Positions 3,526 to 55,574 are shown, counted from the first letter of the stretch. The stretch: 64,000 nucleotides of DNA from a bacterium (GCA_043719295.1 JAYSUD010000005.1:98077-162076), one strand, 5' to 3'. A program made the numbers and translations. The notes: generated from the sequence alone by a model not told the origin.

Positions 3526-3526
3526 G

Positions 3527-3599
3527 TGTCGACGACAAGAATTGAACTTGTGACCTTTTCTTTATGAGTGAAATGCTCTACCAACTGAGCTACGCCGAC
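3527..3599 (-). tRNA. tRNA-Met(CAU), elongator-type (could alternatively be a lysidine tRNA-Ile2)
   Basis: hand-folded cloverleaf: acceptor GTCGGCG/CGTCGAC, D-arm GCTC-AGTTGGTA-GAGC, anticodon loop CTCATAA, T-arm ACAAG-TTCAATT-CTTGT, discriminator A. Confidence 0.75.
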
Positions 3600-3600
3600 A

Positions 3601-4272
3601 TTATTTACTTGCTTGTATGAGACCTAAAATTTTGTACCTCAATGTTGTACCACGAGCTACTCGTAATGCCAACACGCCGTAATAGGAATCATGATTTTCA
3701 TATATCTTTTTCGGACGGCCTTTGAGGAAAATAACTTTGTTAAATTGCTCTTTCGGGATTGATAGAAAATTAGACCAGAAAGTCATAATGACGCATTCAC
3801 GAGGTTTATGTATCTCTGATACATAAATATATGGTCGAAAATCAGACCTTTGCACCCCTAGTTGCTCAAACCAATTCCGAGCAAAAAGTATAACTGAAGG
3901 GTCAGAATTAACAAGAGCAGTACCACTCCCTCCTGCTTTAACACCCTCACCCCAGTACAACCCAATACCTAACATCAGTCTGTCACGTTTCGTCATTTTT
4001 CCAATTATAGCCTTTGCTTTATGCTCTTGTTCTAGGATATTTTCAATCTTTTTACGTCTATTTGATTCTGCTCCCATCATTCTACCTCTGTTTCCAGCTT
4101 TAATTTGTTGCAGTGTAAGTATTTCTCTTTGCGAATCAGAAAGCACTAAATCTCTACACCAAATACTCACTGAACTACTGGATACCCTAAGTCTCTTAGC
4201 TATCGCTTTAATACTCAGCCCATCAGTACGTAGATTTCTTGCAAGTAGTTTTTCTACACTTTTAGCCATCAA
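3601..4272 (-). CDS. HTH + degenerate LAGLIDADG-like (LYWGEG) homing-endonuclease-related protein
   Basis: N-terminal HTH (LSIKAIAKRLRVSSSSVSIW); C-terminal GIGLYWGEGvK...TALVNSD...ILFARNWFEQLGV parallels the I-CreI-type LAGLIDADG alpha-beta-beta-alpha core; stop codon abuts the tRNA-Met 5' end with a 1-nt gap; paralog at 46912-47569. Confidence 0.5.
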   Translation of the reverse strand: MMAKSVEKLLARNLRTDGLSIKAIAKRLRVSSSSVSIWCRDLVLSDSQREILTLQQIKAGNRGRMMGAESNRRKKIENILEQEHKAKAIIGKMTKRDRLMLGIGLYWGEGVKAGGSGTALVNSDPSVILFARNWFEQLGVQRSDFRPYIYVSEIHKPRECVIMTFWSNFLSIPKEQFNKVIFLKGRPKKIYENHDSYYGVLALRVARGTTLRYKILGLIQASK

Positions 4273-9100: not shown

Positions 9101-10004
9101 CCGTAAGACCTGTTGCGGGATTAAATGCACGACCACGAAGATAGAACTGATTAGAGGCATTTTGTAATAGCTCTACAGAACCACGACTGTTACTTGAATC
9201 AACTCGAAGATTCATAATGATTTGTCCCACATCATTTGCGATAATATTATAATCACTGTCGATTCTAAAATACATTCGTTGATAGACATCAGCTGAAGGT
9301 GTTGTGAGCGTTGTTGCAACTCGTGCGTTTCTGTTGGTACCACCAAACGTCGCAGCTAGCGCATAGTCGCCATTATTCTTCGTTGTTGCTTGAATGAGAA
9401 GTGTATTCCCAGCATCAACAGTATCACCAGCACCTGCATTATAATTTTGGAATGTGCTGTCATTGTTTTCAAAACCATCGGTAAAAAGTCCTGTTGAGGC
9501 TTCAGTAGAGGCCAAGGATGCAAAACCAGTTCCTAAAATTGCAGCACTGACAATAGGCACTTCACTTTGGTAACTTTGGTAGGTAATCGGACTTCCGTTT
9601 GTACCTGAGTTAGTTGGTGTAACCACCTCTCGATACGTTCCTCCACGAATATTAATAGTGTCTCCTGCTACCGCTGAACTTGCTGCTTTTTGGACGGTAC
9701 ACCATGGAGCACCAAGTGATGTTCCGAGTGCCACATCTGAACACGTCCCTCCGATACTATTACCGTCTACATAATATGTAGCAGCATGTACGGTGGCACT
9801 TGATATAGATAAACTTACGCTGTAGAACAAAATAAAAGCTATCAGATATAGAAATTTATATTTTCGTATTCTATATAATGGGAAGTGAAATGAGTACATA
9901 TACAGGTAATTGTATATGTACGATAGAAGGTGGTAAAGCAAAAGTATGCACAAAATATACTCAATTGAAGCACATACACTACATTCCAAATTCTTTAAAA
10001 ACAC
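6108..10004 (-). CDS. large secreted cell-surface protein: parallel beta-helix (pectate-lyase-like) repeats, two fibronectin type III domains, Gly/Ser linker, C-terminal peptidoglycan-binding domain
   Basis: N/D-rich beta-helix repeats (NNIIYQAND, NNTITG...); FN3-like ITWTTNEA...LYHFRIR x2; SSGGGSSGGGGSSS linker; PG_binding_1-like LQRMLGTDSAVYPEKEVTGFYGLLTQKAIERFQ; signal peptide likely starts at internal Met (~9899, MYSFHF...VHA). Confidence 0.7.
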   Translation of the reverse strand: MFLKNLECSVCASIEYILCILLLYHLLSYIYNYLYMYSFHFPLYRIRKYKFLYLIAFILFYSVSLSISSATVHAATYYVDGNSIGGTCSDVALGTSLGAPWCTVQKAASSAVAGDTINIRGGTYREVVTPTNSGTNGSPITYQSYQSEVPIVSAAILGTGFASLASTEASTGLFTDGFENNDSTFQNYNAGAGDTVDAGNTLLIQATTKNNGDYALAATFGGTNRNARVATTLTTPSADVYQRMYFRIDSDYNIIANDVGQIIMNLRVDSSNSRGSVELLQNASNQFYLRGRAFNPATGLTGIFGTTVAGSIVPDTWYLLEYRYKGGDAVTGGAQMWLNSSSTGSVFTYNTSTTTIGRAEWGGGTSGTAVAAAGSTLYIDDVRVATSSIGAFVAAGPSNTYKMINVTGDPNNIFENNARMATGSSPTSLTAGMYYYDSVGDILYIRTSDSSNPSTKTIDIPFWNEGFLIVNKQYLVFDDIAVKYNDGAGGLDGAYVIATSSNITVQNADIVDNFGSGVYLHRASSSTISNNQLLRNQRDFGGGLRFENGSDNNIVVDNTITGLGVAAGNGINLCGDGGCGYVGNDNNTIRRNTFYNLRDSCVYVGSLSDNNILEQNSCGLTFRANGVGGTGFHVSRGSDFNIIRNNIFFDMYGASIVVQSNTIDAVETSVYGNQILNNVIYNSATSVVGNHGGISVLDQAYDTIIKNNIIYQANDVSGLRVTGQAATSTIADYNLYYSTQPTVTNMFHWGVTSGTFYTNLANFRVAYPALEANSISVDPQFILASALNFLLATTSPAIDIGTTTALVTNDYIGVTRPQSARYDLGVYERLSSADITAPLITAIASTTGNISATITWTTNEAANSQVSYGPTTAYGATTTLDASLVTSHSVVINSLSPSTLYHFRIRTADSSGNVTFSGDTTMRTTAVADITSPTVSITSPSGGATISGLASVISATASDNIGVAGVQFKINGTNIGSEDTSAPYTTLANTSLFTDGSVSLLAVVRDTLNNYATSSTLVVTVDNTSPILSAIASSTGNTSATITWTTNEAGDSQINYGLSSSYSASTTLDTADVTSHTVTLSGLTASTLYHFRVRSRDAANNLQMSSDQTFTTTAAASSGGGSSGGGGSSSKKKTVATTSVSSPLVIPAVAIIKPITPVRSITPIPLNTSCLLTTSLSYGMSGASVSQLQRMLGTDSAVYPEKEVTGFYGLLTQKAIERFQLKYGIITSGTPQTTGYGNVGPQTRLKLNEVYCSRVTGQGSSSIIPQASTNFVLQAKILQLLTLLAELQAKLAALKKVP

Positions 10005-30762: not shown

Positions 30763-30875
30763 CTTCGAATCCCTCCGCACGTGACATTTAGTCACGTGCT
30801 CATCTTCCGCGAACAAAATATGCGCCCTTGTGGGGCGCTATTTTGAATCGCGGAAGATGAGGGATTCGAACCCTC
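30763..30875. repeat. extended inverted repeat: inverted copy of the 3'-terminal ~25 nt of tRNA-Ser(ACU) (30763-30775 + 30799-30811) facing the tRNA 3' end (30849-30875), with two nested hairpins
   Basis: reverse-complement comparison of the flanks. Confidence 0.7.
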
Positions 30876-30937
30876 GAAGGATTTAACTCCTTGGCAGTTT
30901 AGTAAACTGCTGCTTTCAGCCACTCAGCCAATCTTCC
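30851..30937 (-). tRNA. type II (Ser-like) tRNA with anticodon ACU (loop TTACTAA)
   Basis: 87 nt; acceptor GGAAGAT/ATCTTCC, 3-bp D-stem GCT/AGC, long variable arm (AAGGA-GTTAAA-TCCTT), T-arm GAGGG-TTCGAAT-CCCTC, discriminator G; anticodon stem GCAGT/ACTGC. Confidence 0.65.
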
Positions 30938-35046: not shown

Positions 35047-35142
35047 GCTTCGAATCCCTCCTTTTCTCGCAAATGCAACAAAACCCAAACAAAGCTTTGG
35101 CTTTGTTTGGGTTTTGGCATTTGCGGAAAAGGAGGGATTCGA
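35047..35142. repeat. ~45-bp near-perfect hairpin whose outer arms are the tRNA-Ser(GCU) 3' end (35125-35142) and its inverted copy (35047-35064)
   Basis: reverse-complement comparison; inner arms cgcaaatgcaacaaaacccaaacaaagc / gctttgtttgggttttggcatttgcg. Confidence 0.7.
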
Positions 35143-35209
35143 ACCCTCGAGGGTTATTCACCCTACTTTCTTAGCAAGAAAGCACAATCGGCCTCTCTGA
35201 CACTTTTCC
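35124..35209 (-). tRNA. tRNA-Ser(GCU), type II
   Basis: 86 nt; acceptor GGAAAAG/CTTTTCC, anticodon stem CTTTC/GAAAG loop TTGCTAA, variable arm AGGGT-GAATA-ACCCT, T-arm GAGGG-TTCGAAT-CCCTC; D-arm irregular in hand fold. Confidence 0.6.
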
Positions 35210-35226
35210 TTATTCGACATAATACG

Positions 35227-36216
35227 TTATTTCAAGTACCTTTTCAAATGCTTTGGATTATGAGTTCCAATTTCTTTCATGTACCGAGCAACATCGTGGA
35301 TTGCATCAATACGAACATTGGTTCCACTACATGTGGCAGTACTCCCGAATCGATGCAGAATAAATAACACCTCGTTTCGAAGCGGTTTTGAAGCGGAAGA
35401 AAAACATAATTTCTTATATTGATACTCCTTACCTCCTACTTTATATTTATGGAGATACACTGAACCATCTGTATCCATTAATCCTCGTAGACATGCCGAG
35501 GAATATTCTTCATTTTCTAAAATCCATGCAGGGATATGTACCTGCTGTTTCACTTTGTTACCTATAACGAGTCCTAGGGATACAAGAAAGATGACTGCCT
35601 TTTTCCGTGCCAAAACAATACTATGTGCATGTGCATCTTTACGAACATACACACTTGGCATCACCCCAAATAATTTTTGCATCAATGATTTAACAAACAA
35701 CCCATATTCAAAATCATCAACAGAATGTAAAGTGACCGACACCTGATACTGTGTCAGTCCTCCATCGCCAAGCATGATGCCTATAAATTCAGCAAGTTTA
35801 TTATTTCTCACTGGTATACAAATATTTTTTGTAAAAAAATCTGCTATTTCAGTTTTTCCGCCATTATCAAACCATCTACGCCAACTCTCTTTGCGCACTG
35901 TTTCATTCACAGGAACTCTGCCATACTTTTTCATTACTGCGGAAGAACCTGCTAAACCAGCCCGACTAGTATGCTCATAGCGATTAATTTGACAGACTCT
36001 TGGGACAAGCATATTGGCTTCTTTTGCGAGCAAAACTAGACTCTCATATGGCATCATAGTTTTACCTAACTTCCATCCACGAATTGTACGGTCCGAACAA
36101 TTGCAAATTTTTGCCATACGACCTACTGATACTTTATCGCATGCTTTTGACATCCACAGGGCTTGTTTTTCTATCGAAGCAAACTTTGCTTTTTTATCTA
36201 CTAAAGAATCTATCAT
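35227..36216 (-). CDS. LAGLIDADG homing endonuclease (two-motif) with N-terminal HTH
   Basis: motifs EFIGIMLGDGGL and LRGLMDTDGSV; HTH near the N-terminus; directly upstream of tRNA-Ser(GCU). Confidence 0.8.
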   Translation of the reverse strand: MIDSLVDKKAKFASIEKQALWMSKACDKVSVGRMAKICNCSDRTIRGWKLGKTMMPYESLVLLAKEANMLVPRVCQINRYEHTSRAGLAGSSAVMKKYGRVPVNETVRKESWRRWFDNGGKTEIADFFTKNICIPVRNNKLAEFIGIMLGDGGLTQYQVSVTLHSVDDFEYGLFVKSLMQKLFGVMPSVYVRKDAHAHSIVLARKKAVIFLVSLGLVIGNKVKQQVHIPAWILENEEYSSACLRGLMDTDGSVYLHKYKVGGKEYQYKKLCFSSASKPLRNEVLFILHRFGSTATCSGTNVRIDAIHDVARYMKEIGTHNPKHLKRYLK

Positions 36217-37563: not shown

Positions 37564-37716
37564 ACACGCAAAAGCAGTATGCAATTATGCTCGTAGTGTT
37601 TGCTTAAAAAGTTCAAATACGAGGCGGCCAAAGAAATTTTTACGAGGTGTACGATGTAGTACATTGAGAAAAAATTTCTGTAGGCCAACAAAGTAGTTGG
37701 GATTTTTAAGCAAGTA

Positions 37717-38955
37717 CTACTTAATTACACTCGCAACTGCCTTCATTAACCCCTCCTGCATCACACTCGGAATAATTAACTGCGGAGTGGGTTTTTTAAT
37801 AAGTCCCGAAATCTTCTTTGCGGCAAGGAGTTTCATTTCATCAGTAATTTTTGTTACTCCTCTATCAAGCGCACCTCGAAAGATTCCAGGAAACGCGAGT
37901 GAATTGTTTACCTGATTTGGATAGTCACTTCGGCCTGTTGCTATCACATACGCTCCCGCTGTCTTCGCGTCATCAGGTTTGATTTCAGGTACAGGGTTTG
38001 CAAGTGCAAATACAATTGGTTTCTCTCCCATTTCTTCAATATGGTGTTTGGTAATAGTCCCAGGACCCGATACACCAATAAGTACATCAGCACCTTTAAT
38101 TGCATTTAGCACTTCGCCACTTTTTTTCTCTTTGTTTGTCAATTTTGCAAGTTCTTTTTTGTATGGAATTAATCCCGTACGTCCTTCATAGATAAGTCCC
38201 GTACTATCAGAGATAATCACGTTTTCAATTCCTGCTTTTAGGAGCAAGCGTGCAATAGCGGTTCCTGCAGCACCAGCACCAACAATAACAACCTTCAGTG
38301 ACTCCATCTTTTTCCCAACTACCTTTGACGCATTGATAAGACCTGCCAAAACCACAATTGCGGTTCCGTGCTGATCGTCATGCATCACAGGAATAGAAAG
38401 TTCTTCTTTTAAGCGTCGCTCGATTTCAAAACAACGAGGTGCCGAGATATCTTCAAGGTTAATACCTCCAAAGCCTGGTGCAATGGCTTTGATAGTTTTA
38501 ATGATTTCTTCTGTATCTTGTGTAGCAAGTACAATTGGAAATGCATCAACATTTCCCATCTCTTTAAAAATCGAACACTTACCTTCCATAACAGGCAACG
38601 CTGCAATCGGACCAATGTTTCCAAGACCCAAAACCGCTGACCCGTCACTGATAACCGCGACAGTATTCCGGACAATAGTGTACTCTCGGGCATCTTGAGG
38701 ATTTTTTGCTAAATGTACTGACACCGCACCAACTCCTGGGGTGTACATCGTACTCCATTGTTCACGGTTAGTTAGTTTTCCTTTACTTACAATCTCAATT
38801 TTCCCTTTAAGTTTTTTATGAAGCGCCAACGCAAGTGCGTTATAGTCTTTCTTTTTTTGTACCGGAGTAACTTTTTTAGCTATAGCTGTTTTCTTTGATA
38901 CAGCAACACTTTTTTTAGTGGCAACTTTTTTTAACTTTTGTAGAGGCTTTGGCAT
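37717..38955 (-). CDS. NAD(P)-dependent malic enzyme
   Basis: malic-enzyme NAD-binding VIVGAGAAG plus catalytic region; Lys-rich N-terminal extension. Confidence 0.85.
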   Translation of the reverse strand: MPKPLQKLKKVATKKSVAVSKKTAIAKKVTPVQKKKDYNALALALHKKLKGKIEIVSKGKLTNREQWSTMYTPGVGAVSVHLAKNPQDAREYTIVRNTVAVISDGSAVLGLGNIGPIAALPVMEGKCSIFKEMGNVDAFPIVLATQDTEEIIKTIKAIAPGFGGINLEDISAPRCFEIERRLKEELSIPVMHDDQHGTAIVVLAGLINASKVVGKKMESLKVVIVGAGAAGTAIARLLLKAGIENVIISDSTGLIYEGRTGLIPYKKELAKLTNKEKKSGEVLNAIKGADVLIGVSGPGTITKHHIEEMGEKPIVFALANPVPEIKPDDAKTAGAYVIATGRSDYPNQVNNSLAFPGIFRGALDRGVTKITDEMKLLAAKKISGLIKKPTPQLIIPSVMQEGLMKAVASVIK

Positions 38956-39204
38956 GGAAATTAAAGAACAAATTTAAAATAAAATAATACCGACAGTATA
39001 CTCCAAAGGAAATTAGTACGCGACAATGTATAAAAATACACCATACATGAAAACAACCTTTGATCGCTTTCATCCTTAAATAAAGGTAAGCAACAAAGGT
39101 TGGTGTTCTAAGCGTAAGCTTGCGATAGGGACGGCCGTGAAGGCCGCCCCTCGTCATAATTTGGAAAGATCATGTCGGATCGCGTATATGCAGATTCGGC
39201 ATGT

Positions 39205-39562
39205 TCAGGTCGCCAGGATTTCGGCAGCGCGTGTTGCAAGCTTGGCGGATGTTGCCAGCGGGACGGTCGTATCATCAATCGACATTTTGCCCTTCAGATC
39301 GGTATCAACAGCAGTTGCACCGCGATTCATGCCTTCAGGATGCATTGCGATTTTCCGCATCGGGTCGGTCGTCAGGCCACCAAGGGTCGCACCGGTGTCG
39401 GTGGGTGCATATGTTGCCGATTTTGCGAAAATGCAGCCGGGCAGATCAGGTGCCGAATGTGCGCGCTTGTCTACAACGGAACCACGCAGCGCATCTGGCG
39501 GGCTGGCGACGATCATAGCACCGACTGCACACAGCGCAGTCGAGCAAGAGAAGTTTCTTCAT
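39205..39562 (-). pseudogene. small secreted protein gene with a +1 frameshift after codon 7
   Basis: AGGAGA RBS + ATG (39562) encodes MKKLLLL, then reading shifts to the frame encoding TALCAVGAMIVASPPDA...; the fused product has a textbook signal peptide; GC-rich. Confidence 0.45.
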
Positions 39563-39812
39563 CTCAAGTCTCCTCGTTAGCCGAAATCGTCATTGACGAA
39601 ATCCGGCTGGTTTCAGTTATAGCCCTCCCTATCGGGACGACTGTTTCCAGTTATACCCCCAACTCCCCAAATTCACAAGCCCCCTTGTGTATATTCAAAA
39701 AGCTCCAATCAAAATTGATGGAGCTAGTGTCACTTGTACTCTACAATGGGTACCTTTTTATTTCTTTAGTTTAAATGAACAAACTTAAAACTACAAAGAA
39801 CAAAACTCACTT

Positions 39813-39847
39813 GTCGGCGGGACTGTCGCCCCGCCGTGCAGTTTTTT
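39813..39847. terminator. GC-rich hairpin (CGGCGGG-actgtcg-CCCGCCG) followed by T7
   Basis: seen on plus strand between two minus-strand island genes. Confidence 0.4.
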
Positions 39848-39853
39848 TCAACC

Positions 39854-40390
39854 TCAGTTACCGCCTTTTGCCCGATGGAAACCCCCGCCACCTCTGGCGC
39901 GATTGCCTTTACCAGAACGGCCACCTTCGTAGCCTCTGATCAAAGCGCCTTCCCCTTTGCCCGGCAATGGCTTCGGCCGATGCACTGACAATATCAAGTC
40001 GCCTGGAATATGTGTGGAATGGATCTTCATCCCGTGAAGCATCGTTTCACCAGAAAAATTCGGGTGAGTATCCTCGACCACAATGGCATCATCAATGTTG
40101 GCAAATGGATCAATCTGATCAAGGTCAAGTTGCCCAGATAGGCCATACTCACCCTCAGACATCCCAAAAATGAATTCAAAGCTGAGAAGTTCGAGCAGTC
40201 CACCCAAATCGTCGATCACAATAATATGTCGGTTCGAGTTAAGACGTTCTGCATTCAAAATGAAAAGATCAGCGTCTTCATCGTCATCGATATGACCTGC
40301 TTCAAGCATGTTGGCACAAGCGCAATCTGGACCTAAGCCCTTGTCACAGTTTGCACGTATTTCGTCAGCTCGCTTTTGTCTCGTCTGCAT
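39854..40390 (-). CDS. hypothetical acidic protein with C-terminal Gly/Arg-rich (RGG-like) tail
   Basis: start at MQTRQKR with an AAGGG RBS; GC-rich codon usage; no recognisable family. Confidence 0.4.
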   Translation of the reverse strand: MQTRQKRADEIRANCDKGLGPDCACANMLEAGHIDDDEDADLFILNAERLNSNRHIIVIDDLGGLLELLSFEFIFGMSEGEYGLSGQLDLDQIDPFANIDDAIVVEDTHPNFSGETMLHGMKIHSTHIPGDLILSVHRPKPLPGKGEGALIRGYEGGRSGKGNRARGGGGFHRAKGGN

Positions 40391-40779
40391 GATACCGCCC
40401 TTTAATGTTTCAGTTTCCGCTTTCGTTGCGGAAAAAAACAATACCATATAAAATGATTTTGTACAGGATTCCTATGTTCGGTCTCTTAAAACCAACATAA
40501 TTTCTATATCTAATGTGGGGTCTCGTAAACCCCACATTAAGATTTTTTGCGGTGCAGTCGTCTTAATATATAAAACAAAGCCCACATAATCGCGGACGAT
40601 TTGCGGGCAGGTGGACTATCAAAATATACTGATAGTGAATTTAATTTTTTGGTTCACATGAACCGAAGAACAAAGTGATAACTGGTTAAGAACAGTTTGG
40701 TCGGGGCGGCAGTGACACGCCGCCCCTTCCTTTCGCTCCGACGCTTTGAGGGGGCGTCATCACACCGGAACGAAATTCA

Positions 40780-41300
40780 TCACGCCGCTTCAGCCAACAA
40801 CAGGTCAAGCTCTTTGGCGAAGATGGGCCAGAGGTTGGTTTTGCCATCGGTTGGTTCGAGCCCAAGGATGGTTTTCATCACATCAGCCATATCTTGCGAC
40901 ATGCACCCGACAGTGTTTATGGTAATCCCGCCCTGTTGCAACAGTTCGCCATCTGCGTCGACCATGATGAACGTATTCGGTTCGCCCAATTGCACATTGC
41001 TGAGCAGGTCGATGTCGAAGTCGGTATCGTCAAGAATCTGCGTGATTTTGACCTTGTCGGAAACCGACAGATCTTCAAAGACGATTTCGGCCTTGACCAG
41101 CATTGCCGGATGGGATTCGGTCTTTGCCATCAGTTCAAATTGGCCTTTGATCTTGGCGCCAGAAAGACTGGTGGTGTGCAAAGGATTATTGATAGCGCTC
41201 ACGAGCATGGGCTGAGCCTTCCCGAACAGGTCGGGCATGCCCATGATCAACGCTGCCATAACTGGTGCCTGCACGAAAATCTGCTTTGGTGTGTTCATTG
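40780..41300 (-). CDS. hypothetical protein (GC-rich island)
   Basis: AAGGA RBS 9 nt before the MNTPKQ start; 173 aa. Confidence 0.4.
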
Positions 41301-41458
41301 GTCGAGTCCTTTTTTTGGGCTTTTGCCCGTGGATTGACTCAAAGAGATTGCCAAAGCAACCTCCCTGAGCCGGAGAAATATAACACACCTTATGTAAAAC
41401 ACAAGGTGTGATTTAGGGTTAGTGAATACGTAAACTCTGAACTTTCGGCCTTTTAAAA

Positions 41459-41818
41459 TCAACCAACTTTTGAAAAATTGAAATCAATTTTTTTTCCACT
41501 CTCTTCATCACTTTGTTCAGGTCGACTTTCTAAATAAAAAATGGGTTTACCCATATTAAAACCTTTGGACACATAAAATTCTCCGTTCCCCATTGGCCCA
41601 GTTATGGAAACTCGAACTTCGCTGCCTGAAGCAGTTTCAATTACTTCAATGGTATGTACTGAAGAGTCACGTTCGTACATATTTCCTTCAGCATATATAC
41701 CTGAAATCTGAACCTGAACGTTTTGTCCTGGAATTTTGAAAACTGATTTTATTCTTTCACAGAATTCTGAAGCTGTTTCTGGCTTTTTTTCTGGAGTTGG
41801 TATTGTGGGCGATTCCAT
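41459..41818 (-). CDS. hypothetical protein
   Basis: 119 aa from MESPTIP; hairpin plus T-rich tract downstream. Confidence 0.35.
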   Translation of the reverse strand: MESPTIPTPEKKPETASEFCERIKSVFKIPGQNVQVQISGIYAEGNMYERDSSVHTIEVIETASGSEVRVSITGPMGNGEFYVSKGFNMGKPIFYLESRPEQSDEESGKKIDFNFSKVG

Positions 41819-42249
41819 ATTCGTACAATAGTGCCACACTAACTCCAAACTTAAAAGCATCCCTAGGGTCACCCTCGAGATTGATTGCACAATCCTAGGA
41901 GTACCCTAGGGATGAAGCTTAACCAATAGGAATTAAAACAACAAAACCGCAGGTTTCGAGTCTTAAAAAAGAAAAGAAAAATGCGGTTAACGAATGGGTG
42001 GAATCAAACTAAATTTTGATTATGTGGTGAGTTCAAAGAACGATTGTTTAAAGTCACTTGGCTAAAACATAAGCCAGAAAAGAACTTGGTCATTGCGTCA
42101 GCAAGCCAATTTGCGGGTCGAGCCCTGTTTCATTCGCCAATCTGGCTACGAAACGACAAATTGTCGTGCTTCTTCAAAAGTAAACCTCTGAAGATATATA
42201 AAGTGTATACCTGTCTTTAAATTCCGCAAGTACCCTATAGGGCGAGGAT

Positions 42250-42633
42250 TTACCTCGCCCTACCTAGACGTACACTTCCTGTGCAAGAACTCTCTGCTTT
42301 TGAGACTGCGAATGTGGCAACAATCGCTTCAATCAAACATGAATCCAACTGTTGACGATTCAAATCTTCAAATACCATTTCATACCAAACAAGATGTACG
42401 GCACTTTCAAGACTCTGTTCACCACCTAAGTACGCTTCAAGCTTGCCACAGACACGGCACGAATGTGCCGATTCAATCATCTTGCTTGACCATATACATA
42501 ATGGCCCGCAAGACTGAGCCTTAATTTCGTTCTGCAGAGCAAGATAACGAGGTCTTCTTGAAAACAATAGCATCTCCTTCCTAAAGAAACATAGGACTTT
42601 CCCTGTCCTCTCAGCACCAGTAGCTTCAGACAC
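42250..42633 (-). CDS. hypothetical Cys-containing protein
   Basis: ORF only; CxxC pair. Confidence 0.2.
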   Translation of the reverse strand: MSEATGAERTGKVLCFFRKEMLLFSRRPRYLALQNEIKAQSCGPLCIWSSKMIESAHSCRVCGKLEAYLGGEQSLESAVHLVWYEMVFEDLNRQQLDSCLIEAIVATFAVSKAESSCTGSVRLGRAR

Positions 42634-42922
42634 AACAGCGTCCTTTTGGTGGACTCTTTAAAGCAGAGAGCATAAATAGGCTTAAGTCTCCACCAACATC
42701 CGCAAGACTAAGGCCAATTGCGGAAGTAATTCCGAGCGGCGGAACCGTCGACGTTTGAGCAGATATCCTATTGTTGCAGACTCTCCCCTTTATCAACCCC
42801 CGTATTGCATCACCAGTTGGACAAGTTCTATCTCCCTTCATGACCTACCTCCCTTTCTAATGTGGTCAAAAGCAACTGTACACAAAAGCGGAGCTTCGTG
42901 CAATTTGTTACTATTAACACCT

Positions 42923-45115
42923 ATGCAACCCCAAGACGAACTTACTAAACACTTCCGTATTGATGCGCCACACATTAAGGCACTAAAGAAACTTGGTGTA
43001 GCTTCCGTCAGTGACTTGCTCCACCACTTACCTGCGCGATATGAAGACGTAAGCGATATCCAGTCGGTAGGTGGACTTCAAAAAGATCAAGAAGCAATTG
43101 TGTTTGGGCAACTGTCGGGACTGAAGCTCCGTAAAGCGTGGAAAAGTAAACGGCCGATTGCTGAGGGGTACATTGAAGATGGGTCGGCTAAAATTAAAAT
43201 CATGTGGTTTAACCAGCCATACTTAGCAAAGATGTATAGCGACGGCATGTATGTAAAGATTGTAGGGAAAGTTACCGGAAGTGAAGGAAAACTGTACATC
43301 GCAAACCCCGAAGTTGAAAAACTTGATTCACTTCCGGTTGATCGTCATGATTCAATTTTTCGTAATACTGAAAACCTCGACGACACAATTTATCCCGTTT
43401 ATCGAGAGAGTAAGGGAGTAACGAGCAAGTGGTTTTACCATACGGTTTTGAAGTGTTTTGAAAAAGGAATTCTTGAAACTCTTGAAGATCCTATTCCAAG
43501 CGAAATTCTCAAACGCTATAACCTCCCCGATTTAAAAACAGCACTTGTGTGGATTCACTCACCAAAAAAAGCTGATCATGCACAAAGCGCACGAAAGCGT
43601 TTTGCATTTGAAGAAGTTTTTTATATTCAAATTCAAAACGCAGAATCTCGTAAAGAAGCCAACGCCGCAACAACCTACCAATTCAAAACAGACAAGGCGC
43701 ATCTTAACGCATTTACTGAACGGTTCCCCTTTGAGTTAACAAAAGCTCAAAAGACTTCTATTGATACCATCTTAGAAAACTTCAACGGCAACTACGCAAT
43801 GTCCCGATTGCTTGAGGGGGATGTGGGAAGCGGGAAAACAGCAGTTGCAGCAACAACCGCGTATGCCGTTGCAACGTCTCGCCCACCTGAGGGTACTAAA
43901 GCAATTGAGAAAGGAACGCAGGTTGCCTTCGGCAACTTACAAGTAGCCTACATGGCACCAACGGAGATTTTGGCAAAACAACACTTTGAAAGTTTTATTG
44001 AATACTTCAAACATCTCCCTATTTCAATTGGCCTTATCACCGGAAGTGGTTGTCAAAAGTTTCCGAGCAAAAGTGATCCAAGTAAACCAACTAACATAAG
44101 TAAGGCACAGCTGTTGAAGTGGGTTAAAAACGGCGAGATACCAATTTTGATTGGAACGCATGCTCTCATCTATAAGAGTGTTGAATTTAAACATTTAGCA
44201 TACGTGATTATTGACGAGCAGCATCGATTTGGAACCAACCAGCGTAAGGCCCTCGCAAAGAAAGATGCGCGGATGCCCCACCTCTTATCGATGACTGCAA
44301 CCCCAATTCCCCGTACACTTGCCTTAACCATTTACGGCGACCTCGACATTACGCTTCTTGATGAAATGCCAAAAGGACGCAAGCCAGTGATTACAAAAAT
44401 CATCGGGCCCGGTCAAGAAAAACCAATGTATGAGCACGTCAGAGAAGAACTTAAAAATGGCCGACAAGCCTACGTCATTTGTCCCCGCATTGATGAACCA
44501 GACCCGGAAAAAGAAAATGCATTTAACTTAAAGAGTGTCAAAGCAGAAGCATTACGATTGCAGAAAGATGTGTTTCAGGAGTACGTTATCGGAGTGATGC
44601 ATGGGAAAATGACGCCAAGTGAGAAAGATAAAGTGATGGCAGAATTTTACGCACACAAAATTGACGTGCTTGTTGCAACATCAGTAGTTGAAGTTGGAGT
44701 GAATGTACCAAACGCAACCAACATTATCATAGAAGGAGCAGAACGTTTTGGACTTTCACAACTCCATCAACTCCGAGGACGAGTAATCCGTGGGACACAC
44801 CAACCATACTGCTTTGCGGTAAGCGAAAGTAAAAGTGAGAAAACTAAAGAACGTCTGAAGGCCCTCACTACCGCAAAAAATGGATTTGAACTTGCCGAAT
44901 ACGACCTTACCTTTAGAGGTGGAGGTGAACTCTATGGAGCAAAACAGTCAGGGCTTTCTGATTTAGGTATGGAAGCAATCAAAAATTTAAAACTTGTTGA
45001 AGCGGCACGAACTGAATCGTACAAACTTGTTGATGACAATAAAAACCTTTCAGAAACTCATCCTCAGATTGCGAAGCGTGTTCTTCTCTTGGGAGAAAGA
45101 CTGCACATGGAGTAG
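42923..45115 (+). CDS. recG: ATP-dependent DNA helicase RecG
   Basis: wedge domain plus SF2 helicase motifs (GDVGSGKT, DEQHRFG); start set at MQPQDEL to match the RecG N-terminus (LLHHLPARYED). Confidence 0.85.
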   Translation: MQPQDELTKHFRIDAPHIKALKKLGVASVSDLLHHLPARYEDVSDIQSVGGLQKDQEAIVFGQLSGLKLRKAWKSKRPIAEGYIEDGSAKIKIMWFNQPYLAKMYSDGMYVKIVGKVTGSEGKLYIANPEVEKLDSLPVDRHDSIFRNTENLDDTIYPVYRESKGVTSKWFYHTVLKCFEKGILETLEDPIPSEILKRYNLPDLKTALVWIHSPKKADHAQSARKRFAFEEVFYIQIQNAESRKEANAATTYQFKTDKAHLNAFTERFPFELTKAQKTSIDTILENFNGNYAMSRLLEGDVGSGKTAVAATTAYAVATSRPPEGTKAIEKGTQVAFGNLQVAYMAPTEILAKQHFESFIEYFKHLPISIGLITGSGCQKFPSKSDPSKPTNISKAQLLKWVKNGEIPILIGTHALIYKSVEFKHLAYVIIDEQHRFGTNQRKALAKKDARMPHLLSMTATPIPRTLALTIYGDLDITLLDEMPKGRKPVITKIIGPGQEKPMYEHVREELKNGRQAYVICPRIDEPDPEKENAFNLKSVKAEALRLQKDVFQEYVIGVMHGKMTPSEKDKVMAEFYAHKIDVLVATSVVEVGVNVPNATNIIIEGAERFGLSQLHQLRGRVIRGTHQPYCFAVSESKSEKTKERLKALTTAKNGFELAEYDLTFRGGGELYGAKQSGLSDLGMEAIKNLKLVEAARTESYKLVDDNKNLSETHPQIAKRVLLLGERLHME

Positions 45116-46688: not shown

Positions 46689-46762
46689 CCGCCCTTAGCT
46701 CAGTTGGTTAGAGCATGGAGCTTATACCTCCAGGGTCCCACGTTCGAGTCGTGGAGGGCGGA
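46689..46762 (+). tRNA. tRNA-Ile(UAU)
   Basis: acceptor CCGCCCT/AGGGCGG, D-arm GCTC-AGTTGGTTA-GAGC, anticodon stem TGGAG/CTCCA loop CTTATAC, T-arm CCACG-TTCGAGT-CGTGG, discriminator A. Confidence 0.7.
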
Positions 46763-46911
46763 CAAAAATTGAATTCATATACAAAAATGGTCATTGGTTC
46801 GCACCACAAGAGTATTTCCGTTTTCTAATTCCTTTCAGTCATAAAAAAACTAGGTCAGTCCAAGAGGTCAGACACAGTATATCTCTTTTATATTTTGAAA
46901 AAAATCCTAGT

Positions 46912-47569
46912 CTAGGAATAGATACTTCGTAAGTATCGGATGCCTTCTATCACATATTCGTACATATCTCTATCGTGATATGAAACAACGCACGTACCGT
47001 AATTAAACATTCCTTTGTACGTCCTTGCTTCCGCAGAAGTATTTTTTACATACGTTTTATTAAAGTTTTGCATTGGTATACTTAGATGCTTACACCAAAA
47101 TTCTTTAAGCTCATCTTCATTTTGATTAGTATACGTATGTAGTTTAACTTTAAGTTCGTCCCTTAAGACACCCATATTTTCAAGCCACATGACAAAACAT
47201 TTTACAACAGCAGGATCTGAGTTAGTTAATGACGTCGTATATTCGGCTGATTTTGTACCTTCATCCCAATAAAGGTAAAAGCCTGCAATAAATTCAAGAT
47301 TTCTACTACAGGAAATGTCATGTGATACTTTTTTAAATACAACACTCCTCCTATCATCTTTTTTCTTCTGCATAGTCATTCGATATTTCTCAATTCGAAT
47401 CTCAGAATTCGCTCGTAATTCATTAATACGCTTTTTTTGAAAGTGGCATGTCACTTAACCATCCGCTAAGGGTACTTTTACTGATTCCTATTTCGGTTTT
47501 TATTTGAGAATAGCTCATCCCTTTCTTTCTTAAGGTAATTGCTTTTAGTTTATTTTTCGAACGTACCAT
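46912..47569 (-). pseudogene. frameshifted paralog of the HTH + degenerate LAGLIDADG-like protein
   Basis: HTH part (47423-47569) and LYWDEG C-terminal part (46912-47454) overlap by 32 nt in different frames; collinear with the intact 3601-4272 gene. Confidence 0.5.
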
Positions 47570-47728
47570 ACATATTATATAATTTACATTCCTTAGTTCG
47601 ATTATATCACACACCAAAACCTCACAACGACATATTATGAACATTGCCATTTCCCTGTTTTCCGTTAGACTACGCAACAGACTATCCGCCTAATTACTCA
47701 CACAGAGAAAACACAAGGAGAGTACACT

Positions 47729-48610
47729 ATGCCGAAAGAGATCTTTGACGTGGGCATCGCCGCTGGCATGCTCAAAAAAGCGAGCGACTTCAACAGGCGT
47801 GCACTTTCGAGTATCGCTTCAACAGCACTCGGCTCATTTACGCTTCTTTCGAGACAAGGAAACCCTGAGCCGAATTCGTACTGGGATGCAGCATCCAAAA
47901 CCGGGTTCAATGCCATTGGACTCAGGAACCAAAGCCTTACTACATTCTTCGAGGAAGATGCCCCTTTGCTTCGCAAACTCTTTGCGGAAACAGGCGCACA
48001 GGCCGACATCAGCCTCGCGCCAACCGAAAGTGGCGAACTGAAGAGAATGTGCCAAGTGCTTCGACAGCAACCAAGAATTCTCCCTATTCGCTTGGTTGAA
48101 GTGAACGCGGCATGCCCAAATCATCGTAAGGGCGAAAACCTGCAACCAATTCTCGCGTACGACCCTGTCGCGCTTGATGCACTTTTGATGGAGGCGAAGG
48201 ATTGCCCCTTCTCGATTTCACTCAAGATTGCTCCGGATACCAACGAGGCGACGCTCTTTGAAATCGTGCAACTTTGTGTCAAGTACGGTGTGTCCGAAAT
48301 TGTCTCGGGAAACACCCGTCGCACTGAGGCAGTCTGGAACGGGAAGTCTGTTCTCTCTGTTCCTTATGGAGGACTGTCAGGAGCACCTTTGTTTGACAAC
48401 GCGGTCGAACAGGTTGCAACCCTCAAGGCGATGATTGAGGCACAGAGAAGTCTTATCAAGGTTCGTGGAATCGGTGGAATCTTCACACCCGAAGATATCG
48501 CAATCATGCGCAATGCGGGTGCAGATAGTGTAAGCGTCGCATCACTGTTCTACTTCGGTGGCGGGTGGGACGCAGTTGCCGATCTTTCTACAAGCTTCAA
48601 TCTACGCTGA
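47729..48610 (+). CDS. pyrD: dihydroorotate dehydrogenase-family protein (class 1-like)
   Basis: EVNAACPN active-site motif and TIM-barrel flavin-binding pattern; GC-elevated. Confidence 0.7.
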   Translation: MPKEIFDVGIAAGMLKKASDFNRRALSSIASTALGSFTLLSRQGNPEPNSYWDAASKTGFNAIGLRNQSLTTFFEEDAPLLRKLFAETGAQADISLAPTESGELKRMCQVLRQQPRILPIRLVEVNAACPNHRKGENLQPILAYDPVALDALLMEAKDCPFSISLKIAPDTNEATLFEIVQLCVKYGVSEIVSGNTRRTEAVWNGKSVLSVPYGGLSGAPLFDNAVEQVATLKAMIEAQRSLIKVRGIGGIFTPEDIAIMRNAGADSVSVASLFYFGGGWDAVADLSTSFNLR

Positions 48611-48777
48611 AGCAAAACACATGTTCACGGTGGGCGTTTAGGCGCCCACCTGTACAACACTGCTCTTCACCCACACTTTCCCTACAGCTTCCCTGTTAGG
48701 GAATTTTTTGTTATGGTACAGGCGGACGTTTTTTTGACACGACCCTGTTTCGCATCAACAACTAGAGAGGACAAACA

Positions 48778-49827
48778 ATGACGCAAAGTCTCACAATACG
48801 CAGACCTGACGATCTCCATCTCCATCTTCGTGACAAAGAGATGCTTGAAAGAATTCTTCCTGAGAGTGCTCGTCACTTTAGGCGAGCACTTATCATGCCG
48901 AACCTCGTACCTCCTGTTGTGACAGAGGCAGAGGCAGTTGCCTATCATCAACGAATTTTGGCAGCATTGCCAAAAGGAGCAGAATTCACTCCTTTGATGA
49001 CGGTGTATTTGACTGAACACACTAACGCAAACGACGTTGCTCGTGCCTATGCAAATGGCAACATACGTGCGGTGAAGCTTTATCCAGCCGGTGCCACCAC
49101 AAACAGCCATGGCGGAGTTGGCAACTTCGACAACGTCCAAGGTGTCTTGGAAAAAATGAATGAAGTTGGCATCCCACTTTGTGTTCATGGCGAGGTTACT
49201 GATCCAGCGGTTGATATCTTTGATCGTGAGGCAGTTTTCATCGACAAGGTGCTTGAACCTTTGCGACAGAGAAATCTTGGACTTAAAGTCGTAATGGAGC
49301 ATATCACGACTGAAGACGCTGTGGATTATGTGAAAGATAATGACGGCGACAATCTTGCTGCCACCCTTACCACCCATCATCTCATCATCAATCGGAACCA
49401 CTTGCTAGTTGGAGGAATTAAACCCCACTACTACTGCTTGCCAATTGCAAAACGTGAAAAGCACCGCCTTGCACTTGTGAAGGCAGCGACATCAGGCGAT
49501 CCAAGATACTTTCTTGGGACAGACAGTGCACCGCATTTCGACAGTCTCAAGGAACACGCATGTGGATGTGCCGGTTGCTTCACTGCAACCAATTCCATCT
49601 CAATTCTTGCACATGTGTTCGAGAAGGAAAATGCACTACTGAAGCTAGAGGACTATACCTCACGTTTCGGTGCCGAATTCTACGGACTTCCACTGAATGA
49701 GGGGACTTTGACCCTGATGAAGGAAGAGGCTCAGGTCATCTATCCAAGCAAGATTCTGATTGCTGGTGGCGAATCGGTGACGGTCTTTGATCCAGGATTT
49801 CCAATCCATTGGCGTGTTGAGGCATAA
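48778..49827 (+). CDS. pyrC: dihydroorotase (class II, E. coli-type)
   Basis: [12 protein letters not shown]-terminal metal-binding motif; 349 aa. Confidence 0.85.
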
Positions 49828-53712: not shown

Positions 53713-54159
53713 ATGAGCGCATACATTAGTAATAAAAAGGCATCGTTTAACTTTGAACTCCTTGAAACCTTTGAGGCAGGAGCGGTGCTTTTTGGGTATG
53801 AGGTAAAGTCCATTCGCGCAGGTAAAGGAAAGCTTGAAGGAGCTCACGTGGTTATCCGAGGTGGTGAGGCATTTTTGGTAGGTGCTTCAATCACCGCTTT
53901 TCAGCCTGTAAATACTCCAAAAAGTTATGATCAAGAACGTGCACGAAAACTTCTTTTGTCTAAAAAAGAACTCCAGGTTCTTGAACGTCAAAGTGAGAAT
54001 GCTGGCTTGACAATAGTGCCATTAAAGTGGTATAATAGTGGACGCAATGTAAAGCTTGCAATTGCTATCGGCCGTGGTAAAAAGAAGGTCGATAAACGTG
54101 AAGCGCTCAAGGAGCGTGACACAAAAAGAGAAATCAATCGTACCTTGAAAGAACAATAG
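53713..54159 (+). CDS. smpB: SsrA-binding protein SmpB
   Basis: SmpB pattern (NKKASFNFELLE...GxEVKS); tmRNA follows. Confidence 0.85.
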   Translation: MSAYISNKKASFNFELLETFEAGAVLFGYEVKSIRAGKGKLEGAHVVIRGGEAFLVGASITAFQPVNTPKSYDQERARKLLLSKKELQVLERQSENAGLTIVPLKWYNSGRNVKLAIAIGRGKKKVDKREALKERDTKREINRTLKEQ

Positions 54160-54236
54160 AATCTTCGCTACAGTGAGATGGGTTCACATTCGGTGGCACA
54201 TCAAAAAATCAAACAACAAGTTGAGGGCAGTGACTA

Positions 54237-54476
54237 ATGGCTGATATCGTAATACTCCAATTCGGGACAAAACGTGATCCCGAAACAGAGCAAAAGCAGA
54301 TAGAACTGCTGACAAAACGGGTCTTGAATGAGATCTACAAAGGCAGAGTTGCAGAAATGCTCTCTGATATGCGGCACGACACTTTTAAAGGTGAATGCTC
54401 GCACTTGAAGCTGTGGCTCCAAGAAAAACTTGAGGTAGTTCAAGTTTCAAGACCAGTTCGCGTACTAATACAGTAA
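54237..54476 (+). CDS. hypothetical 79-aa ORF inside an inverted-repeat-bounded element
   Basis: GAGGG RBS; bounded by 16-bp inverted repeats at 54167-54182 and 54518-54533. Confidence 0.25.
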   Translation: MADIVILQFGTKRDPETEQKQIELLTKRVLNEIYKGRVAEMLSDMRHDTFKGECSHLKLWLQEKLEVVQVSRPVRVLIQ

Positions 54477-54590
54477 GCGAACGAGAGGAACGACTCGAGC
54501 AGTATCCTGCCGTTCCTCCCATCTCACTGCAGCGAATATTAATTTAGATACAAACCGGTGGTCATATGACCCCAAAAAAGGGAGAGAACT

Positions 54591-54758
54591 ATGCTGTACA
54601 ATGACCCGACTCTGATGATTGTAGTAATGGCGATACTGTATATCCCCATTGCAATTTTTTTCACAATTCTCGGATTCAGACTACTACTTTGGAGACGAGC
54701 AAAAAAGCACGTCCCCCGGCGGACACTATATAAGTCCGCCCCATCATTTTGTATCTAA
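54591..54758 (+). CDS. hypothetical 55-aa single-TM small protein
   Basis: strong RBS AAGGGAGAG 6 nt upstream; not in the ORF track (<60 aa). Confidence 0.3.
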   Translation: MLYNDPTLMIVVMAILYIPIAIFFTILGFRLLLWRRAKKHVPRRTLYKSAPSFCI

Positions 54759-54887
54759 ACAATATACGCACACTATCCCCTGAAAATTTTTAAATTCAAT
54801 TTGAAAATTGTAAGAGACTTACAACTTGTACGTCATGATGTATGTACAACCTTCCCATTGAGTATTTAAGCTATTTGAATTTTCAAT

Positions 54888-55280
54888 GGGGATGCTAGGC
54901 ATCGACGGTTAGTCCCTGCTGTTGTGTGCAGTGTCAAAAGAGCATGTGGATTTGTAAAAATACATGCAACACTTACGTGCTAAGAATAACGTAGTAAGTC
55001 CATACTTCTCGAAGTTGGATCTCGTACCCGCTCTCGCGTAACCCGCGACGGCCGGTCGACATTGTTTCTCTTGAGGTTTCATAGAGAGAATTGCAGTGTA
55101 ATAAAAATGAAACTTGAAAGTAGTACCCCTTCCTAGTACTACTTAGACCTTCTTAGGAATCGAGAGTGTACGATTTTGTTTATCTTATACGTCCACCCTT
55201 TAAATCAAAAGAAATACTACACACTGTAGACGCGCGATAGCAACCTAATTCGGACGTGGATTCAATTTCCACCATCTCCA
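54888..55280 (+). ncRNA. ssrA: tmRNA (ssrA), one-piece
   Basis: 5' GGGGATGCTAGGCATCGACGG (conserved TCGACGG); 3' tRNA-like end GTGGA-TTCAATT-TCCAC + CATCTCC + A; G3:U70 alanine determinant; candidate tag ORF (A)KNNVVSPYFSKLDLVPALA* at 54979-55041. Confidence 0.8.
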
Positions 55281-55574
55281 CAATTTAAAAATCTGCACAC
55301 ATTTTTCGTGGGCGATTTTTATTTGTGGAGATGGTGAACAGGCAAACTGCTTTGCCTGTGTGAAATTGAATCAAGCGGAAGCATGTTGCCTTGCAACAGC
55401 TGAGCTCGGGGAGGAAGTTCTTAGTAATTTAGGAACGAAGTGAACTTAAGTACTTAGAAACTTGACCCTTCAATTTCCACTATCTCCACCGACACATAAA
55501 ATCACTCAGATCCATGAGTGGTTTTATGTTTTATTTGGCACGGTGACCCACGGAAGTATGTCATACTTATATAT

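Follow-up and report, generated by a model that had tools for sequence, protein, structure and literature searches.

Between a malic-enzyme gene and recG, in a stretch of 64,000 nucleotides from a bacterial genome (JAYSUD010000005.1, positions 98077-162076, assembly GCA_043719295.1; the whole stretch is called the window below), lies a spacer of about 3.97 kb occupied by small genes of no recognisable family. The content of this islet differs between the present genome, called W, and five related lineages, called B to F, and the question is how so small a region came to be filled with such genes. The malic-enzyme gene (37717-38955, minus strand) and recG (plus strand, true start at 42923) are divergently transcribed, and all the islet genes are read in the direction of the malic-enzyme gene. 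There are five open reading frames (ORFs) on the minus strand, ORF1 to ORF5 counted from the malic-enzyme side, and a doubtful one of 71 amino acids (aa) next to recG. A first-pass annotation, made from the sequence alone, had described much of this: both neighbours are confirmed, the five ORFs are there, and none has a match in Pfam, PHROG, NCBIfam or PADLOC. Its lengths of 119 and 127 aa are correct, and its 179 and 173 aa become 178 and 172, the stop codon apparently having been counted.

The flanking genes indicate what kind of organism this is. Malic enzyme (71% aa identity) and RecG (74%) are closest to those of Candidatus Nomurabacteria HK-STAS-PATE-25 (CP060229), then to those of other Parcubacteria. 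Judged by these matches the source organism is a Nomurabacteria-like member of the Parcubacteria, not a Saccharibacteria epibiont, so the argument that the islet came from an actinobacterial host, as might be imagined for Saccharibacteria living on Actinobacteria, does not apply; nor was any actinobacterial or other outside homologue found. The locus is not an assembly chimera, a worry raised for the boundaries at 39.1 and 42.7 kb. An independent Logan contig (L001, from SRR23617205) is 100% identical over 37660-43342, spanning both junctions and carrying the same frameshift in ORF1, and assemblies of other samples in ENA, JGI and Logan show this arrangement too, with variants in the five related lineages.

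Composition and genes of the islet

The entire interval 39120-42750 had been called compositionally foreign. Its guanine plus cytosine (GC) content is 0.460, and the count offered as an example, 34 G+C of 60 at 39181-39240, is exact. The excess, however, is confined to 39100-41310 (0.492, against 0.412 for the window), and the 1.4 kb to the right of it (41311-42750, 0.411) is background, so the description fits the left part only. Even there the richness is patchy: at 200-bp resolution, stretches of high GC (0.54-0.585 in 39100-39560, 0.57 in 39800-40000, 0.49-0.57 in 40700-41300) are separated by AT-rich spacers of 0.36-0.40. The 500-bp segment with the highest GC in the 64 kb begins at 39101 (0.554, z about 4, where the mean is 0.413 and the standard deviation 0.035), and the 2-kb segment 39001-41000 is the strongest tetranucleotide outlier (z = 3.0). 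The level is not unique, since a patch at 47.7-49.8 kb also reaches 0.50-0.53. That second patch (47729-49827) holds pyrD (dihydroorotate dehydrogenase, Pfam DHO_dh) and an adjoining dihydroorotase-like ORF (pyrC), with GC at third codon positions (GC3) of 0.53 and 0.44; the pyrD homologue in relative E (contig L088) has a GC3 of 0.57, and the patch is probably another old import.

GC3 averages 0.334 (standard deviation 0.073) over 62 ORFs of the window. Host genes lie between 0.22 and 0.43, and two that are likely to be highly expressed, those for L20 (0.43) and IF3 (0.37), their identities judged from sequence, are slightly raised. In the islet the values are 0.66 for ORF3, 0.56 for ORF1, 0.45 for ORF2, 0.37 for ORF5 and 0.22 for ORF4. 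Only the first three are atypical, ORF4 and ORF5 having native composition, and so by composition the locus resembles a genomic island over 39.1-41.3 kb and no further.

ORF3 (40780-41298, minus strand) encodes an acidic protein of 172 aa. Its family is restricted to this clade, with five representatives among 1.84 billion proteins; scans of IMG/VR and of JGI metagenomes, and tblastn against plasmids, gave no match. An AlphaFold2 (AF2) model built from five sequences is confident (predicted local distance difference test, pLDDT, 89.7; predicted template modelling score, pTM, 0.86) and places the N-terminus inside the fold, which argues against a signal peptide, and ORF3 appears to have none. 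No structural relative of the predicted fold was found, BFVD included. Between alleles the ratio of nonsynonymous to synonymous substitution (dN/dS) is 0.29-0.44, with a dN of 0.5-0.6 as against 0.04-0.10 for malic enzyme, and the divergence spans the whole protein around three conserved motifs, TDFD, GG(I/V)(T/P)I and DGxTNLW. ORF3 is a real, fast-evolving coding gene and, so far as a model can tell, the founder of a new protein family, with a confidently predicted structure that matches nothing searched. Four of the five proteins of the family end in Ala-Ala. So does the tag, AKNNVVSPYFSKLDLVPALA, encoded by a full-length transfer-messenger RNA (tmRNA; 54888-55283, 107 bits) that adjoins smpB elsewhere in the window (53713-55283), an agreement that may be coincidence.

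ORF3 is preceded by a promoter-like region (41299-41410, minus strand) comprising TTGTGT-16 nt-TGT-TATATT at 41377-41404, a stem-loop at 41361-41375 and an AAGGA ribosome-binding site, and its core is nearly invariant in an alignment of six lineages. In strain C a promoter of the ORF3 type stands before a gene with no detectable similarity to ORF3; that gene was considered as a homologue and rejected (hhalign probability 0.3%). About 50 nt 3' of ORF3 is a GC-rich hairpin of 8 bp (40703-40726), in a region 80% identical in B.

ORF1 (39205-39562, minus strand; GC 0.58) had been read as a small secreted protein. It is indeed a small gene of Sec type, intact in relatives, but in the present genome it is frameshifted. 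The ATG at 39562 (MKKLLL..., with a GAGGAG ribosome-binding site before it) opens a frame of only 38 codons, and the main frame of 103 aa (39516-39205) is a different one that lacks the signal peptide. The intact alleles of B, C and D are 108-122 aa long, all with signal peptides, and to judge from the reading frames ORF1 is inactivated here. The family amounts to four clusters among 5.8 billion proteins.

The alleles of ORF1 are put together from segments with different histories. Three of the four share a C-terminal module, the centre is hypervariable, and strain C holds a third variant of that centre. Over the 5' two-thirds of the gene, W and B are 40-65% identical, B and D 83-87%, and W and D 43-60%; over the last 135 alignment columns at the 3' end the figures are 93.7%, 47% and 45%. 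The flank holding the malic-enzyme gene is less alike in W and B, at only about 84% identity, so the exchange of the 3' segment was a recent one. ORF1 is a recombinant mosaic. An attempt at polarising the substitutions found few differences in the shared 3' segment.

Upstream of ORF1 (39563-39696, minus strand) are TTGTGA-17 nt-TATAAC at 39650-39678, a leader hairpin at 39580-39607 and the GAGGAG site. These are kept in B and D, where both sides of the hairpin stem have changed in the alignment and the pairing is retained; the element would serve as a promoter. For ORF3 and ORF1 alike, conservation is stronger in the promoter-like elements and leaders than in the coding sequence that follows. 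On the 3' side of ORF1 is a GC-rich terminator-like hairpin (39128-39150, minus strand), GGGGCGGCC-TTCAC-GGCCGTCCC, which is a perfect 9-bp stem in B (L084), the single changed position still pairing, as G-U, only in a minus-strand transcript. For strain C, the ENA contig with the ORF1 allele begins with an apparent remnant of an Illumina adapter, GACGCTCTTCCGATCT (L094 1-16), an artefact of the contig end.

ORF2 (coding sequence 39854-40390, minus strand), an acidic protein of 178 aa with a Gly/Arg tail, sits with its ribosome-binding site and terminator in an 813-bp block (39694-40505) that is absent from B and D: positions 6174-6192 of B (18 nt) match window 40506-39693, which makes 813 bp extra here. 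Part of the block, at one end, also occurs elsewhere: a 677-bp contig from the same sample as the strain C contig L086 shares 39623-39803 at 87%. ORF2 matches only itself among 5.8 billion clusters, it has no match in IMG/VR, in JGI metagenomes or, by tblastn, in plasmids, and it is unrelated to ORF3 on comparison; a single-sequence AF2 model (pLDDT 49.9) is too poor for a fold search. From its length, ribosome-binding site, terminator and codon-position GC it is plausibly coding. The block looks like a later gain at the level of the lineage, the only such part of the islet, and no convincing target-site duplications or inverted repeats surround either it or the island. The GC-rich hairpins annotated at 39813-39840 and 40701-40728 are present at 39815-39836, as the terminator of ORF2 (minus strand), and at 40703-40726, behind ORF3. 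A perfect hairpin given as 9 bp at 40527-40552 exists as well, at 40511-40539 between ORF3 and ORF2 and with arms of 11 nt (TAATGTGGGGT / ACCCCACATTA); its sequence is kept in B (L084 38-72, 94% identical).

ORF4 (41459-41818, minus strand) is an orphan of 119 aa that B also has and that strain C matches at 91% identity. Just a few nucleotides 5' of its ATG there is a -10-like hexamer, so placed that the mRNA may be leaderless. Three of the six CCTAGG sites in the window fall within 49 nt of one another upstream of ORF4, in a palindrome cluster (41858-41914) with CCCTAGGG at 41861-41868 and again at 41904-41911. At the same position B has about two sites (one an exact CCTAGG), C has five (L085 6263-6359) and D has two (AATCCTAGG-N6-CCTAGGATT, L082 234-250), and the cluster is possibly an operator for some regulator. 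These palindromes had been annotated in the spacer at 41.9-42.26 kb along with TAGGGCGAGG...CCTCGCCCTA (42238-42262), and all of them are present, the last as the probable terminator hairpin of ORF5 (minus strand). Between ORF5 and ORF4 runs a conserved non-coding spacer (41935-42230, minus strand) with a promoter-like element at 42203-42230, an intrinsic terminator at 41935-41958 and several hairpins. RNAalifold finds four pairs changed on both sides in just three sequences, and with three or four sequences to compare, the spacer is a weak candidate for a small RNA; Rfam gives no match in 38900-42900, even at E<=1.

ORF5 (42250-42633, minus strand; 127 aa) probably starts at MLLFSRR, at 42573, which makes it 107 aa. 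The strain C copy agrees at 63% identity from residue 22 on, the B copy is truncated, and the CxxxC...CxxC of ORF5 may be read, as a motif, as a zinc ribbon. Searches of PDB sequences gave nothing useful for ORF2, ORF4, ORF5 or the ORF3 profile. The 71-aa ORF (42626-42841, minus strand), of uncertain coding status, was picked up by gene calling on the Logan contig; strain C has no alignable counterpart of this stretch and holds a different ORF of 103 aa there. Two long plus-strand ORFs, 39172-39774 and 40697-41215, were weighed as genes and set aside: homologues, signal peptide, codon-position GC and AF2 all favour the minus strand.

Variants of the islet in related lineages

Three Parcubacteria less closely related to W were compared, L002 (Nomurabacteria), L003 (Adlerbacteria) and L004. 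In each of them only about 100-800 bp separate recG from the malic-enzyme gene, again in divergent orientation, as compared with 3.97 kb here. The insert of 3.9 kb is therefore specific to the clade, and the segment is an insertion, as first described. The spacer of L002, 770 bp long, contains a small ORF of its own (about 58 aa, GC 0.55-0.60; 9422-9700) followed by GC-rich hairpins, and the site may have drawn GC-rich small genes across the wider group.

Within the clade the content of the site varies from lineage to lineage. B (L087 and L084, joined through a 30-nt overlap) has a truncated ORF5, ORF4, an ORF3 of 170 aa and an intact ORF1 of 119 aa. C (L085/L086) has the 103-aa ORF, ORF5, ORF4 and the undetectably related gene behind the ORF3 promoter; D (L082) has an ORF of 128 aa, ORF3, ORF1 and a protein of 432 aa with an SH3 domain; E (L088) has ORF3 and then a VPLPA-CTERM protein of 193 aa; F (L089) has an ORF of 108 aa and then ORF3. 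The contigs of C, D and F cover part of the interval only, and many contigs of relatives stop at or inside islet genes, as is to be expected where strains differ.

How old, then, are the GC-rich genes? ORF3 has homologues at the same site in four related lineages and ORF1 in three, five lineages between them, and every member of either family whose flanks are visible lies in the recG/malic-enzyme neighbourhood of this clade. The six ORF3 alleles have a GC3 of 0.66-0.83 and the ORF1 homologues 0.62-0.76, with 0.30-0.41 in their own flanking genes. The synonymous divergence (dS) of the malic-enzyme gene between lineages is 0.56-1.41. Equally GC-rich homologues at the same site, between flanks that far apart, mean that the GC-rich genes were present before the lineages split. 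What had been proposed was a recent horizontal acquisition. An insertion at the level of the clade and an atypical codon composition of the left part both hold; the recency does not, except perhaps for the ORF2 block.

No homologue of ORF1, ORF2 or ORF3 outside the clade emerged from the searches of protein clusters. The one clue to a donor comes from a different cargo gene. The 193-aa protein of E (L088 10805-11386), next to the malic-enzyme gene and with a GC3 of 0.75, scores 26.0 bits against TIGR03370 (cutoff 25.35) and resembles (36% identity, E 4e-8) a plasmid-borne VPLPA-CTERM protein of Haematobacter (Rhodobacterales, an alphaproteobacterium); the genes on the 16-kb L088 locus include no exosortase. 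GC-rich foreign genes do, therefore, land at this site, although the match bears on this one gene and not on the source of ORF1, ORF2 or ORF3. No ORF of the window matches VPLPA-CTERM or PEP-CTERM. Secretion signals, or N-termini that look similar by eye, are found in ORF1, the VPLPA-CTERM protein, the SH3-domain protein and the 108-aa ORF of F.

The neighbours of the island encode a major facilitator superfamily (MFS) protein, a LAGLIDADG-like protein, a nitroreductase and an oxidoreductase, with no integrase, recombinase or transposase among them; the only serine recombinase encountered is that of relative E, two genes from the island. As for an integron cassette array, there is neither an integrase nor a repeated family of imperfect palindromes at the gene ends (no dedicated attC model was run), and ORF1, ORF3 and ORF4 each have a conserved promoter-like region of their own, unlike the promoterless cassettes of integrons. 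As for a prophage, PHROGs gave nothing below E 0.09, blastn no match to 50,697 phage records, and IMG/VR and BFVD were negative; blastn of the island against plasmids yielded nothing useful. PADLOC found no known family of anti-phage defence at E<=1 among the five ORFs, although an undescribed system is still possible. There is no sign of a diversity-generating retroelement, neither a reverse-transcriptase domain in the ORFs scanned with Pfam nor a long pair of direct repeats in 38.9-42.9 kb, and no useful paralogues of the islet genes were found within the window.

Origin and upkeep of the islet

I propose that the islet is a small accessory region, specific to the clade and variable between strains, that arose as a hotspot driven by recombination and seeded by old imports, an account I hold to be somewhat better than an even bet. 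It is a patchwork of orphan genes, apparently transcribed separately, with promoter-like elements at ORF1, ORF3 and ORF4 and hairpins after ORF1, ORF2, ORF3 and ORF5. ORF3 and ORF1 were already in place when the clade's common ancestor lived; most likely they go back to an old import from a GC-rich donor and have since drifted only part of the way toward the composition of the host. Alleles, and segments of alleles, would have been swapped by homologous recombination among co-occurring strains through the conserved flanks and promoters, and further cargo gained or lost, the 813-bp ORF2 block being the instance here. Because several of the cargo genes are secreted or at the surface, the likeliest role, to judge from their sequences, is one at the cell envelope or in how the cell interacts with phages or partner cells.

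Several observations weigh against this proposal. No donor has come to light, the ORF3 and ORF1 families amounting to just five and four clusters among 1.84 and 5.8 billion proteins. The island shows no integrase and no convincing direct repeats at its edges, and the closest tRNA genes, at 35.1 and 46.7 kb, do not adjoin it. The spacers between the GC-rich coding regions are AT-rich, with promoters of the host type. The case for ORF2 as coding consists of the four features listed above. Finally, the GC content of ORF3 at first and second codon positions (GC1 and GC2) lies, in all five alleles checked, near native values and below what GC3 would predict, the prediction using regression coefficients attributed to Lawrence and Ochman (1997). 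This is the opposite of a fading foreign signature and fits a force that keeps GC3 high.

That force is the substance of the principal alternative, in which the GC-rich genes are native, restricted to the clade and fast-evolving, their high GC3 maintained by GC-biased gene conversion, at a hotspot of recombination, or by selection at synonymous sites. Besides GC1 and GC2, it can point to the GC3 of 0.66-0.83 in all six ORF3 alleles despite a dS above 1, to GC-richness that is found in coding regions and terminator stems only, promoters and spacers having a native look, to the lack of homologues outside the clade, to the recombination seen directly in the ORF1 mosaic, and to the GC-rich patch (0.55-0.60) over a small ORF at the same intergenic site in the outgroup L002. 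It meets difficulties of its own. Those genes of the window that are likely to be highly expressed, L20 and IF3, are only mildly raised, and E has a clearly foreign GC-rich gene, that for the VPLPA-CTERM protein, at the same site. By my estimate, a gene that began at a GC3 of about 0.9 could still be at 0.6-0.8 after simple decay through 0.3-0.9 substitutions per site, and the known shifts in bacterial GC3 ascribed to biased gene conversion are a few percent, not the +0.35 to +0.5 required here. I consider this alternative unlikely on balance, at perhaps between one chance in five and one in four. A bolder version, in which ORF3 and the hypervariable secreted ORF1 form a clade-restricted module whose alleles are exchanged among co-occurring strains, with the GC bias actively maintained at this locus alone and a possible role in recognising strains or interacting with a partner cell, is speculative, with about one chance in five.

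Much weaker is the idea that all of 39.1-42.75 kb was brought in recently from a high-GC host, for instance an actinobacterium. The atypical GC and GC3 of 39.1-41.3 kb would suit it, as would the standing of ORF1, ORF2, ORF3 and ORF5 as single-member clusters at 90% identity, and for the 0.8-kb ORF2 block alone, absent from B and D and without homologue, it is plausible. It is already contradicted for ORF1 and ORF3 by homologues of equal or higher GC3 at the same site in five lineages with flanks at a dS of 0.6-1.4, and for ORF4 and ORF5 by the native composition of these genes and of their spacer and their retention in relatives; the organism is Nomurabacteria-like, no actinobacterial or other outside homologue was found, and for the block as a whole I regard the idea as improbable. 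An artefact, whether a chimera of assembly or binning or GC-rich non-coding DNA with spurious ORFs, is most improbable of all and, where the entire locus is concerned, already refuted: long ORFs on both strands of GC-rich DNA (the two plus-strand frames above among them), a gene caller that took the antisense ORF on L001 and L082, and an ORF2 with no homologue and a poor model lend it something, against which stand the Logan contig identical at both junctions, the recurrence of the arrangement in three sets of assemblies and in other samples, the confident model and dN/dS below 1 of ORF3, the signal peptides retained by the ORF1 alleles and the C-terminal module retained by three of four, and the silence of Rfam.

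Other features of the window and kinship with known systems

A few features elsewhere in the window bear mention. An Rfam match to a group I intron (1422-1669, 51 bits, where the gathering score is 50) abuts an ORF with a LAGLIDADG-type motif (1666-2343). In 3526-4272, 35123-36216 and 46689-47677, ORFs stand directly beside tRNA genes (tRNA-Met, tRNA-Ser-GCU and tRNA-Ile-UAU); one such ORF, 35227-36216, matches Pfam LAGLIDADG_3, and two of the others start with sequences that by eye are alike and resemble a helix-turn-helix. ARAGORN calls a tRNA-Ser with anticodon ACT (30850-30937) and a tRNA-Ile with anticodon TAT (46689-46763), both of them unusual anticodons; Rfam, at its gathering threshold, reports neither this tRNA-Ile nor the tRNA-Ser at 35123-35209.

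To what known class does the islet belong? Streamlined free-living bacteria have flexible genomic islets, hypervariable regions between core genes that are exchanged by homologous recombination through their flanks. The present locus is like them in its fixed site between housekeeping genes, in content that differs between close strains, in secreted or surface genes and orphans, in the absence of integrase and attachment-site repeats, in assembly breaks and in mosaic alleles. It is unlike them in being very small (3.9 kb, five or six genes), in a part of its cargo that is GC3-rich throughout the clade, and in keeping its promoters even where the coding regions downstream have been replaced or diverge to an extreme. 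Genes for surface and secreted proteins can likewise be mosaics, in which variable and conserved segments are shuffled between alleles. ORF1 conforms, with its signal peptide, variable centre, conserved C-terminal module and similarity that goes segment by segment according to the pair of alleles compared; what differs is that the window contains no silent donor copies or repeats, and that the variation is between strains rather than within a genome. Integrase-type islands at tRNA genes and integron arrays share with this locus the atypical GC, the pattern of presence and absence and the small units of single genes, but here there is no integrase or recombinase, there are no direct repeats, no tRNA gene is adjacent, and promoter-like regions go with individual genes.

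Closest in host are the genomic islands of Patescibacteria, in which such islands and horizontal transfer have been reported to be common (mSystems 2025, PMC12455944), the islands having been predicted with the IslandViewer4 web server and an unsampled donor being a recognised limitation. The Patescibacteria or candidate phyla radiation (CPR) host, the atypical composition and the unsampled donor are found here as well. The differences are that gene order is here compared with outgroups and sister strains, that the present island is much older than "recent", and that no homologue of its core genes is found beyond the clade. Features of this class are thus already known, and the locus is a fairly ordinary example with a few odd details.

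It nonetheless provides an example of a precisely bounded islet in six comparable variants, in keeping with the idea that small variable islets hold the strain-specific genes of streamlined CPR genomes, often with surface functions, and it has yielded a new protein family (ORF3) and a mosaic gene for a secreted protein (ORF1). It also counsels caution in calling islands by GC content: the high-GC signature has persisted across the whole clade and therefore says little about how recent a transfer was, or who the donor. If it is true that the GC3 bias is maintained, then the islet would offer, in an ultra-small bacterium, a compact natural setting in which to test for biased gene conversion or synonymous-site selection.

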